Below, one piece after another: positions 12,685 through 18,783 of a stretch of 32,000 bases of DNA. The position numbers and the translations under genes are program-made. The stretch is from Candidatus Scalindua sp. (GTDB taxonomy: Bacteria; Planctomycetota; Brocadiia; Brocadiales; Scalinduaceae). The notes under the pieces are model-generated. The model was not told where the DNA came from. It saw only the letters and a program-made list of their open reading frames with translations, and ran no database searches. Each line of letters opens with the position of its first letter. The stretch's first letter is position 1. Where the stretch lies: assembly GCA_031316235.1 (NCBI GenBank), contig JALDRA010000001.1:2250001-2282000 (forward strand), written 5' to 3'.

Positions 12685-14718
12685 ATGGAAAACCTGCAAA
12701 TAAACATCAATCATGTCTGGGTTATGGCTGCAGCCTGTATGGTATTTTTCATGCAACTGGGCTTTACCTCCTACGAAGCGGGCTTCGCACAATCAAAAAA
12801 TGCCATTAGCGTTTCTATTAGAAACCTGATGGTTACTGTCATAGCTCCCCTGGTATTTTACACCTTTGGATTTGGATTTATGTTTGGTGAAAGCTATGTT
12901 GGGTGGATTGGATTAGATCATTTCTTTGCCAGAGGGGTAATGACACATCAGGGTAATCTGGCTTTTAGCTTTTTCTTTTTTCAATTGGTCTTTGCCGCTA
13001 CTGCCGCTACCATAATGACAGGCGCTATGGCAGAACGTTCGAATTTTATTTCTAATGTGGTGGGAGTCGTATTTGTGACAGGCATTATCTACCCGATTTT
13101 CGGCCATTGGGTATGGGGGAATCTCTTTTGTCCAGAACAATCCGGCTGGCTGGGAAGATTGGGGTTTATTGATTTTGCAGGCTCCACGGTGGTGCACTCG
13201 ATTGGCGGATGGTTTGCTTTGGCCGGGGCATTGGTTGTGGGTCCAAGAATTGGTAAGTATAATCCCGATGGTTCTTCAAATCGAATGGGGTTACATAACA
13301 TTCCGTTGGCTACACTGGGTACTTTTTTCCTCTGGTTTGGTTGGTTTGGATTTAATGGAGGAAGTCTCTTCCGGTCAGGCGCAAACATAGGCCTCGTTAT
13401 TACAAACACAAATCTTGCGCCGGCAGCAGCAGGAGCATCAGCGCTGATATTTAATTACATAAAGGAGAAGAGAATCAATGTTGACAGGTTTTTCACAGCG
13501 ATCCTGGCAGGACTGGTAGCGATAACAGCAGGCTCTAACAGGCTAAATCCTGAAGACGCTGTTTATATCGGTCTTATTACAGGTATCGTTGTGATCCTGG
13601 CTCAGGACTTTATTGAAAAGATATTAAAGATCGATGATCCCGTGGCTGCCATCGCCGTTCATGGGGTGGGAGGCGTTATAGGCACCCTCTGCGTTGCGCC
13701 TTTCGCCGACAAATCAACCCTTCTTGTTGAAAACAACAGCCGCATTCTCCAACTGGGCATTCAGGCAGTTGGCGTTGGGACAGCCTTTGTATGGTCGTTT
13801 GGGCTGGGAATTCTATTCTTCTGGTGCGTCAAAAAGACTTTAGGCATACGGGTAAGCCCTGAGGAAGAAAGAAAGGGGCTCAATGTGGCCGAATACGAAG
13901 ACGTGGCTTCCTGGCTTGATTTTATTCGTATTACAAGGCTTCAAGACTTGAACACCCTCCTGGAAAAGAGAGTTGAAGAAAGAACAGATGAACTTCATAA
14001 GACAAACATTGCACTGGAAAAGGCCAACAGACTTAAATCAGAGTTTTTGGCTAACATGTCTCATGAGTTGCGTACTCCACTCAATGCAATCATTGGTTTT
14101 GCCGAAGTTTTAAGGGACGAAGTCGTCGGGGCCCTCAGCGCCGAACAAAAAGAATACCTGAGCGATATTCACGGAAGCGGCCAGCACCTGCTCAATATGA
14201 TTGACAGCATCCTGGATCTATCAAAAATTGAGGCCGGGAAATTAGAACTCCACTACGAAGAGTTTCCAATAAAAGAGACTGTCAATGAGGTGCTTAATAC
14301 CATTATTGGAATCTCCAATAAGAAGGGCATTCAGATACATAGTAACATCCAGACGGATGTTCCTTCCATAAAAGGAGACAAAGTAAAGTTTAAACAGATA
14401 ATGTTCAATCTATTATCCAACGCTGTCAAGTTTACGCCGGAAAATGGCAGGGTTGTTATCAATGCAGGCCTTAAGAACCAGCATATCCAGGTTGCAGTGA
14501 GCGACACCGGTATCGGAATAAAACCTGAAGACATGGACAAAATATTTGAAGCATTTCTTCAGGTAGATGCCTCATACGCACGTCATTATGAGGGAACCGG
14601 ACTTGGCTTGACACTCACAAAACGACTGATCGAATTGCACGGAGGCAAGATATGGGTAATAAGCGACTTTGGGAAAGGAAGCACCTTTACTTTTACGCTA
14701 CCCTTAAAACCAAAATAA
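12685..14718 (+). CDS. amt: Ammonium transporter (Amt/MEP) domain fused to a histidine kinase (HisKA + HATPase_c); Ks-Amt5-type ammonium sensor kinase
   Basis: The N-terminal ~400 aa carry Amt hallmarks ([42 protein letters not shown]). A coiled-coil linker leads to the H-box SHELRTPLN, an N-box (LLSNAVKFT) and G-boxes (DTGIGI, GTGLGL). Confidence 0.9.
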   Translation: [677 protein letters not shown]

Positions 14719-16365: not shown

Positions 16366-18783
16366 TTATTTTTCATGTAATTTTTCGATATTCTGAATTT
16401 CCCTGAGAAGCTCTTCCTTCGTATGACTTCCCTTTTGTACAATTGCCATAATATTACCATTCAATACTTTTTTGTCTTCTTCGGTAATATCCTTAGAGGA
16501 ACAGATAACAATAGGAATATTCTTTGTTTTTTGATGTTTTCTGAGGTTTTCCACAACATCAAAACCGCTGATATCCGGCATCATCAGATCAAGTATGATC
16601 ATATCTGGATTATTATTTATGGCAAGCTCGATTCCTGCTTTACCTCCATACGCCGTAAGTACCCGAAACCCTGCATTCTCAAGAATGGCCCTGATGTATT
16701 TCACGGCCTCTTCGTCATCATCTACAACCAATATTTCCATTGGTTTATCCTTTGTGCTTAGATTTGATGTGATAATTTCTACCGTGTTGATGAGTATTTT
16801 CCTGTCAACTGGTTTCATCAGGTAGCTGGCTGCACCCAAACTATACCCGAGATTCTTATTATCAACAATCGACACAATAATGACCGGAATATCCGCTGTC
16901 TCCGGAAAATTCTTAAGCTTTGAAAGAACTTCCCACCCGTCTACCTTCGGCAGCATGATATCAAGAGTAATCAAAAATGGTTTAAATTCCTTTGCCTTTT
17001 TGATAGCTTCTTTGCCATCCACTGCAACAATTACATTATAACCTTCATTTGTCAAATATACGGCAAGAAGATCAGCGGCCATACGGTTGTCCTCCACTAC
17101 CAGAATGGTCTTCACATCATTTCCAGCCAGCTTGTGCTGTCTGGCTTCATTCACCTTTGGCTTTGGAATACGAAAGGTAGCCTTTAGCGGTAACGTAAAA
17201 CAAAAGGTACTTCCCTTTTCATATTCACTTTTGAACCAGATCTTCCCACCATGCATTTCTACAATCCTTTTTGTCAAAGCGAGTCCCAACCCGGTTCCCT
17301 GGTATTTTCGTGAAAAGGAGTTATCCGCCTGCCAGAATTCTTTGAATACCTTCTCCTGATCTTCAGGTTTCATCCCTATTCCCGAGTCCGTTACCGAAAC
17401 CTGTAACGTATCGTCTATAATGCTCGCCTTTGTGATAATATTACCATTTTCTGAAGTGAACTTTATGGCATTTGAGAGCAGATTATAAAGAACCTGTTTA
17501 AATTTAACCCTGTCTGCCTCAATGTCTTTTGTCTCCGGATGTATTTCTGTCTGTAAGTGTAAATGCTTTTTATCAGCAAGCCCCTGTATTATATGGTACA
17601 CATCTTGAATAGCATCAGTCACAGAAAATACCTCATGTTGAAGAACCATTTTCCCTGCCTCAATTTTAGATAAATCGAGGATATCGTTTATCATTTGCAA
17701 AAGATGATAGCCGCTACTGTGAATATCTTTTACAAAATCCAACTGTTCTTCGTTGAGATCACCGCAAATCTTGTCCCTGAGTACCTCTGCAAAACCAATG
17801 ATTGCATTGAGTGGAGTACGCAACTCATGAGACATGTTAGCCAGAAACTCTGATTTCAGTTTATTGGCACGTTTCAGGGCTATGTTCGCCTCCTGTAAAT
17901 GAGCGGTTTTCTCGGCAATTCGCTGTTCTAATAATGAATAAGAAGAGCGTAATTTACTGGACATGTCGTTAAAGGCCCTGCCGAGTCGTCCGACTTCATC
18001 ATTAGATGAAATATCAACCTTTGTCGAAAGATCTCCGGTTTTTGTTACAATCGCTGCAGCCGCCGTTAGTTTTTCAATGGGCCTCATGAGTTTGCCTGTG
18101 ATAAAGAAAATAATCACCACAATCAGCAGGATACTGACAACGCCAACAATGAGAAAAAAAATAATATCAGATGCAAACCGTTGCTCAGCTATTTCTTTTG
18201 GAATAATAACACTCAAAGCTCCCTTGATTTCCCCCAGCTTATAATCATATCCCGCACTGTAATTTTTCTGTATAACCTCCGGAGCCTTTTCTTTCGGTCC
18301 ATGACAGAGAAGGCATTCCTCTTTTACATATAAAGCGTACATATAACGTTCTACCCTGTTCCCCTCTATAATGTCATCTGACCAGTATTCCACAAGGCTG
18401 GAATCTGCTTCCATTTTCTTAAGCATTTCTTCCTCAAAGGCGTCTGGTTTATTTTCCTCATTTCGGTAACGCAAACTTGTCTGTTTAATAATATAGCCGG
18501 TCCTCTCAGCAAACTTTTTGCTGATAGCATTCGTAGCAATGGCCGGGACAAAATGTTTTGTCCTGTCATTAATTTCAATGTTTTGAGAGTGTATAACGGA
18601 TGCAAGGTAATTCCTCGAAGTTTCCAATTCTATGACCAACATCCGTGCCTTCTCCTGGATTTCCTTGATGAATTCCTGGTGTGTTCGTTTATAAACCAAG
18701 AAAGCTACTATGCCGTTCAAAGTAACGAGTAACGCAGCCAATAAAATTACTAATTTATGTCTTATCTTCATACTTCTTCTCAA
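16366..18783 (-). CDS. Hybrid sensor histidine kinase: TM, DUF3365/Tll0287-like extracytoplasmic domain with a CxxCH heme-c motif, TM, HAMP, HisKA, HATPase_c, two receiver domains
   Basis: [15 protein letters not shown] lies between two TM helices. HAMP ([13 protein letters not shown]), the H-box [21 protein letters not shown], then two REC domains (ILVVEDN...LDIMLP; ILVVDDD...LDLMMP). An alternative start is Met5 (18771). Confidence 0.85.
   Translation of the reverse strand: [805 protein letters not shown]

Follow-up and report, generated by a model that had tools for sequence, protein, structure and literature searches.

The window studied here, a stretch of 32,000 nucleotides (32 kb) from Candidatus Scalindua sp. 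(contig JALDRA010000001.1), carries two histidine-kinase genes that face each other and share, across the boxes holding their phospho-acceptor histidines (H-boxes), an exact inverted repeat of 55 nucleotides (nt). One gene codes for a kinase fused to an ammonium transporter domain (the Amt-kinase), the other for a hybrid kinase. Comparison with related loci points to a single, recent, non-reciprocal ectopic gene conversion, by which 37-55 nt of the hybrid kinase would have been copied into the Amt-kinase, and we put the probability of this reading at about 0.9. The repeat is a clean but ordinary case of conversion: it represents neither a novel type of element nor a conserved DNA signal or DNA switch.

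The H-box tract in the two kinases and their relatives

No other exact repeat in the window, whether direct or inverted, is as long as the 55-nt pair formed by plus-strand positions 14048-14102 and their exact reverse complement, 17789-17843. The arms lie 3686 nt apart and both are in frame. With one mismatch the pair widens to 14035-14102 versus 17789-17856 (67/68 identical), the sole difference (14047/17844, T/C) being synonymous (Leu TTG/CTG). At the junctions the 5' flank of the Amt-kinase reads ...GAGTTTT/TGGC... and the 3' flank of the hybrid kinase ...TTTTGC/AGAGGTAC... (slashes mark the boundaries). The original prediction made on this DNA had given the 55-nt inverted identity, its coordinates and sequence, and its extension to 68 nt, all of which we reconfirmed.

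The identity exceeds what protein conservation would produce. The two kinase cores align without gaps over 259 codons and share 56% of their amino acids and 64% of their nucleotides. Beyond the tract the same codon is used at 50/120 identical degenerate residues, where 44.4 are expected from the codon usage of the window alone, so that synonymous sites are saturated and the paralogues ancient; the original prediction that the genes differ freely at synonymous sites in the GTGLGL/HGG region is borne out by this codon alignment. Inside the tract the same codon is found at 20 of the 22 identical degenerate residues, and agreement of the 17 degenerate codons from A456 to F472 by codon usage alone has a probability of ~1e-8. 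The second-longest exact run between the cores is 12 nt. In a Sawyer-type run test (377 variable sites), the window pair shows a run of 18 concordant sites, which was reached in 0/20,000 permutations, whereas the longest run is 2 in the copy of the gene pair found in L081, an ENA contig from a syntenic sister genome. Codon alignment and run test thus agree that the tract is longer than overall divergence predicts, and the suggestion that conservation of the protein could not suffice to explain it holds.

The sister genome also indicates the direction of transfer. L081 (Amt-kinase 95% identical in protein and 94.7% in nucleotides, hybrid kinase 97.3% in nucleotides) has the gene order of the window (Amt-kinase, regulator, receiver, hybrid kinase, GH15 glycoside hydrolase, pyruvate carboxylase) and is colinear with it across 12649-21479. 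Its hybrid kinase matches that of the window at 68/68 positions of the tract, so the tract is the hybrid kinase's own and was present before the two lineages separated; the donor is unchanged and the transfer non-reciprocal. Its Amt-kinase is only 54-55/68 identical there. Over the 2034 nt of the Amt-kinase gene the window and L081 differ at 108 positions, 13 of which fall in 14052-14088 and all match the hybrid kinase. In a quartet with outgroup these 13 consecutive informative sites place the window Amt-kinase with the hybrid kinases, while at the flanking informative sites 14047 and 14103 it sides with the other Amt-kinases against the hybrid kinase; the converted tract therefore has a minimum length of 37 nt (14052-14088) and a maximum of 55 nt (14048-14102).

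Three further loci that hold only the Amt-kinase (L084, L085 and L082; 93%, 89% and 84% protein identity) are likewise unconverted. Within the 55 nt the Amt-kinases of L081, L084 and L085 are 52-54/55 identical to each other, whereas the window Amt-kinase is only 41-42/55 identical to each of them; outside the tract it is 85-95% identical to them. The long stretch of identity to a paralogue thus comes with a phylogenetic signal that differs inside and outside the tract. At the protein level, T457 and S468 are found in all four closest proteins (P0001-P0004; 89-95% identity), and N457 is otherwise confined to a distant clade (58-61% identity). Together with the native tract of the hybrid kinase, these unconverted orthologues show that the transfer ran from the hybrid kinase to the Amt-kinase and took place on the branch of the window's strain. 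At the level of sequence comparison, direction, boundaries, restriction to one lineage and non-reciprocity are thus established, and the distribution among relatives is patchy, the Amt-kinases of L081, L082, L084 and L085 being unconverted. A longer, patchy conversion upstream was considered, given that positions 13955, 13968 and 13971 also match the hybrid kinase, and rejected: these sites are interleaved with non-matching ones. Outside the tract, 10/25 changes private to the window match the hybrid kinase, which is about chance level. The 37-nt minimal tract, searched for as an exact string in metagenome contigs, gave no match. In 858 kb from 87 related loci no similar kinase-to-kinase exact repeat turned up; the exact repeats of at least 24 nt that were inspected there lie outside kinase H-boxes and are apparently intergenic or tandem.

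The original prediction had left the choice between gene conversion and a constraint acting on the nucleotides. The first part stands, now with a direction and boundaries; the second does not. Under the constraint, an RNA structure, a regulatory or protein-binding site or translational tuning would fix the synonymous sites of the H-box in both genes, as might be suspected from the window itself, where all synonymous sites are identical over 18 codons. However, 27 hybrid-kinase orthologues (L086-L112; 67-73% protein identity) differ from the window at 11-18/68 nt, all of these differences being synonymous but one (Leu to Met, in L097/L099), and the four Amt-kinase orthologue loci encode nearly the same peptide with another nucleotide sequence. 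More distant paralogues also keep the peptide with free synonymous variation, and an Rfam scan gave no family match at the tract. Synonymous variation is thus not suppressed across orthologues, which refutes a nucleotide-level constraint and leaves it a probability close to nil.

The tract could also be an artefact of assembly or polishing, that is, a chimeric consensus borrowed from the paralogue: the window probably comes from a metagenome-derived genome, and its exact Amt-kinase protein is absent from the gene catalogue. We consider this very improbable, for several reasons. The flanks shared before conversion (12-14 nt) are not long enough to lead k-mer graphs or read mappers astray. Separate Logan assemblies (k=31) of the runs SRR28338161 and SRR28338162 hold pieces of the window's strain at 100% identity, L166 covering window positions 17818-15172 and L172 positions 14073-15090. 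In the assembly of SRR28338161, Amt-specific sequence is contiguous with 30 nt of the converted tract, in a contig that is also present in the second sample; in L172 the converted sites 14076-14088 are joined to Amt-specific sequence. Each of the two contigs starts 30 nt (k-1) inside the repeat, counted exactly from its downstream edge, as expected of a de Bruijn graph at a true exact repeat of 31 nt or more; the unconverted 3' block, only 14 nt long, could not cause such a break. The start of L172 was predicted from the repeat boundary before the contig was retrieved, and the prediction held.

Some observations do weigh against conversion as we describe it. Only one sister genome (L081) has both genes, so that the timing rests on it and on the three Amt-kinase-only loci, and zero differences in 55 nt carry little dating power. 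The Logan contigs may share the samples of the window: they exclude an assembler artefact and do not represent an independent population. For RecA the homology is short, and for classical quasipalindrome template switching the arms, at 3.7 kb, are far apart; the enzymology is one that we infer.

Route of transfer and consequences for signalling

We propose that the H-box stretch of the hybrid kinase (17789-17843, minus strand) served as a template that overwrote 14048-14102 in the Amt-kinase. This would have happened after the lineage of the window split from its closest sampled relatives, replacing 13 nucleotides at once and altering two residues near H460. If the L081 pair reflects the genes before conversion, these were locally ~80% identical, with exact blocks of 12 nt (AAATCAGAGTTT) and 4 nt (TGGC) on the 5' side and of 14 nt (ATCATTGGTTTTGC) on the 3' side. 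The 12-nt 5' flank is also identical in the unconverted L081 pair, which makes it the candidate microhomology for the 5' junction. RecA needs a minimum of ~25 nt for efficient use, as known from E. coli. Because the exact blocks fall below this minimal processing segment, we slightly favour a RecA-independent short-homology route (about 55%) over RecA-dependent homeologous break repair (about 45%).

The short-homology route could be a double template switch across the fork between the inverted copies, or the annealing of a single-stranded fragment at the fork. The recipient base kept at 14047 amid matching sequence would fit a pre-synthesised 3' end primed on the donor, and thus points to one or the other of these. 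Donor and recipient are inverted and complementarity rises by several bases in one step, as expected for template switching; the arms are not close, however: in quasipalindrome template switching they typically lie less than a few hundred bases apart and meet at one fork. Synthesis-dependent strand annealing on a homeologous template would give the same product.

What did the conversion change? Eleven of the 13 changed sites are synonymous and the other changes alter two residues, T457N (H-3) and S468A (H+8). Judging from the aligned families, the functional consequence is probably near-neutral, because A468 is the consensus of the Amt-kinase family and N457 occurs naturally in the distant clade. 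A non-neutral conversion, in which the docking face of helix 1 (T457N, S468A) was copied after the genes became neighbours and wired ammonium sensing to both receivers, is unlikely; if true, it would mean pathway rewiring by micro-conversion and not by point mutation. More speculatively, the new 55-bp inverted identity would then permit an in-frame inversion swapping sensor and output modules.

The adaptive version of this idea, namely that the helix-1 conversion was selected for letting an orphan ammonium sensor phosphorylate the receivers of the neighbouring hybrid kinase, is in our view quite improbable. It does draw on the position of the converted residues, which lie in helix 1 of the dimerization and histidine phosphotransfer (DHp) domain, with S468A (H+8) beside H+7/H+11/H+12, positions that reportedly set partner specificity in work on EnvZ and HK853. 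Helix 1 is also identical in both kinases after the event, and Amt-kinase orthologues found elsewhere have no adjacent receiver gene. On the other hand, both changes remain within the natural variation of Amt-kinases, L081 has the same neighbourhood and no conversion, and the large share of synonymous changes is what neutral copying predicts. The original prediction that identical DHp helix-1 residues mean shared receivers is similarly weak: (i), helix 1 was already identical except for T457 and S468; (ii), the same helix-1 peptide is common to many kinase paralogues of Brocadiales and to unrelated PDB kinases, for example 7Z8N; (iii), helix 2 still differs between the two kinases at many positions; (iv), both receiver genes belong to a conserved operon of the hybrid kinase.

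This operon (GH15, hybrid kinase, 124-amino-acid receiver, 245-amino-acid regulator) is conserved in ~20 Brocadiales loci, the regulator gene being kept downstream of the receiver gene in ~18. No Amt-kinase was found within 6 kb in the hybrid-kinase loci fetched from metagenomes, and the Amt-kinase orthologues in L082 and L084 have other neighbours. The convergent arrangement of Amt-kinase and hybrid-kinase operon is seen only in the window and L081. With the operon conserved and the Amt-kinase orthologues placed elsewhere, we assign both receiver genes to the hybrid kinase, not the Amt-kinase.

Finally, the tract might be the crossover site of an invertible segment, whose inversion would swap the C-terminal kinase/receiver modules. 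The two arms share a reading frame in inverted orientation, so that both chimeras would be in frame, and 55 bp of identity exceeds the usual minimum for RecA and could in principle support rare inversion by this enzyme. Nevertheless, inversion of the ~3.7-kb segment, raised in the original prediction, finds no support, and we regard an invertible segment as exceedingly unlikely. The window and L081 are colinear (k=31 contigs are too short in k to resolve orientation across a 55-nt repeat). Pfam scans of 20 open reading frames (ORFs) of the window revealed no invertase or site-specific recombinase, and the only mobile-element gene in the scanned ORFs is a DDE transposase (6926-8689). A receiver domain occurs in none of 120 Amt-kinase homologues among the matches listed. 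Last, the repeat is private to one lineage and is accounted for by the conversion.

Gene neighbourhood and other repeats

Table 1. Tract boundaries and genes around the two kinases (window coordinates; aa, amino acids)
Feature	Position	Strand	Remarks
Recipient copy, maximal conversion tract	14048..14102	+	Amt-kinase H-box; encodes A456-A473, including phospho-acceptor H460
Minimal conversion tract	14052..14088	+	37 nt; 13 consecutive diagnostic sites at which the window Amt-kinase equals the hybrid kinase and not the L081 Amt-kinase
Donor copy	17789..17843	-	hybrid-kinase H-box; L081 hybrid kinase identical over all 68 nt
5' flank, pre-existing similarity	14035..14047	+	AAATCAGAGTTT, then T/C mismatch at 14047; partner 17844-17856
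Amt-kinase gene, 677 aa	12685..14718	+	2034 nt; Pfam Ammonium_transp, HisKA, HATPase_c
Hybrid histidine kinase gene (donor), 805 aa	16366..18783	-	Pfam Tll0287-like, HAMP, HisKA, HATPase_c, 2x Response_reg
Single-domain receiver gene, 124 aa	15954..16328	-	Pfam; hybrid-kinase operon; directly downstream of the hybrid kinase in ~20 loci
Response-regulator gene, 245 aa	15209..15946	-	Pfam receiver domain and uncharacterised C-terminal half; hybrid-kinase operon
GH15 glycoside hydrolase gene	18755..21097	-	conserved upstream member of the hybrid-kinase operon

By its sequence the Amt-kinase is an orthologue of Ks-Amt5 (kust_3690) of Kuenenia stuttgartiensis: it shares 70% identity with P0077, a Kuenenia protein, PDB 6EU6 matches its Amt domain (E=3e-192) and, as in Ks-Amt5-type proteins, an Amt/Rh membrane domain is fused to HisKA and HATPase_c. 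Its closest relatives (82-95% identity) come from metagenome-assembled genomes of Brocadiales. Ks-Amt5 is an ammonium-modulated sensor kinase, whose H460A variant was used to probe the phospho-acceptor (PMC5764959); the histidine inside our tract is residue 460, with the same number. Exact-protein look-ups returned no record for the window Amt-kinase, the window hybrid kinase or P0003. A profile search of genome contigs with the Amt-kinase alignment keyed on generic Amt motifs (WFGWFGF etc.) and gave at least 80 Amt loci, all unrelated, with no anammox locus among the matches listed.

In the hybrid-kinase operon, the hybrid-kinase ORF (TTG start, 18783) and the GH15 gene (end at 18755) overlap by 29 nt, and the two genes look translationally coupled. 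The true start of the hybrid kinase is probably the ATG at 18771, because the gene call in L081 begins three codons later (MKIRHK...). L081 also lacks 262 bp of the 245-aa regulator gene (window 15256-15517; around 12543 in L081), which leaves a 133-aa product; since the full-length gene is conserved in ~18 other loci, L081 has probably lost the C-terminal half of this regulator.

Several other repeats are scattered across the window. D1 is an intergenic family of ~100 nt (9584-9679, 15064-15186 and 30299-30394), with copies in L081 (12379-12481 and 8614-8696) and L084 (2863-2977). In the window, L081 and L084 a copy follows closely after the Amt-kinase, where synteny between the three breaks, and the L084 copy adjoins a DDE_3 transposase; D1 may be an element resembling miniature inverted-repeat transposable elements that marks rearrangement junctions. 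Two further intergenic families are D2 (9784-9862, 12357-12435 and 21516-21594), which holds a GC-rich hairpin (AGGGCAGGCATTGCCTGCC), and D4 (8992-9057 and 21456-21521). D4 and D2 are contiguous at 21456-21594 and ~730 nt apart at 8992-9862, with a DUF4258 ORF and a D1 copy in between.

The DDE transposase belongs to an insertion sequence with terminal inverted repeats at 6748-6769 and 8742-8763. At 6677-8810 this element apparently interrupts a repeat of ~125 nt, which is present in one piece at 11448-11571. Rfam also matches a group II intron domain V/VI (RF00029, at threshold) at 5401-5475 (+) and, immediately downstream, a D1-D4 group II intron (here D1-D4 are intron domains; RF02005, 137 bits) at 5520-5767 (+). 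A single intact intron would not be expected to show this order; the region may hold two neighbouring or nested copies, or a fragment.

Comparison with known systems

The window offers a well-resolved natural micro-conversion, for which donor, recipient, boundaries and a sister-genome control are all identified. It shows that otherwise unrelated signalling genes can be bridged for recombination by conserved catalytic motifs, of which the kinase H-box is one. This has relevance for how the insulation of two-component pathways is kept or lost, and for the reading of substitution clusters in phylogenies and in scans of non-synonymous to synonymous substitution rates (dN/dS). It is also relevant to the fragmentation of metagenome assemblies: k=31 contigs break exactly at the repeat, which fragments short-read assemblies of both kinase genes at positions predictable from its boundary. 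The affected gene is the orthologue of the only characterised anammox ammonium sensor kinase, and was probably altered without functional consequence.

How does the repeat compare with known systems? In the inversion switches driven by invertases (hin, fim, shufflons), as in the window, a pair of inverted repeats flanks a segment of a few kb. Unlike in these switches, the scanned ORFs of the window include no recombinase gene, both repeats are part of conserved coding motifs, the comparison with L081 shows a single orientation and relatives do not keep the repeat. Closer in outcome are template-switch (quasipalindrome) mutagenesis and RecA-independent short-homology recombination, reportedly studied by Ripley and by Lovett and colleagues. 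As in quasipalindrome mutagenesis, a simultaneous cluster of substitutions perfects an imperfect inverted repeat with microhomology at both junctions, and the recipient base at 14047 fits the end of a pre-synthesised primer; the arms, however, are 3.7 kb apart and not tens of bases. As for the recipient, it shares with Ks-Amt5 (PMC5764959) its architecture and length, 70% identity and the phospho-acceptor H460, but carries N457 and A468 imported from a paralogue, and it adjoins the hybrid-kinase operon, which most Ks-Amt5 orthologues do not.

No relevant paper came up when the literature was searched for gene conversion between histidine-kinase paralogues. Ectopic conversion between bacterial paralogues is nevertheless well known, from tufA/tufB in Salmonella, rRNA operons and pilE/pilS. 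As in conversion of the tufA/tufB type, transfer in the window is non-reciprocal and within one replicon, the donor is unchanged and the patch of identity conflicts with the gene tree; the inverted orientation of the pair also resembles tufA/tufB. There are key differences: (i), the partners are not homogenised, near-identical duplicates but ancient paralogues with different sensor domains, 64% nucleotide identity and saturated synonymous sites; (ii), there is a single tract of 37-55 nt with 12-14 nt of flanking homology; (iii), there is no sign of ongoing concerted evolution, the longest run in the sister genome being 2. The event is thus a fresh instance of a well-known process, notable for the age of the paralogues and the very short homology that flanks the tract.

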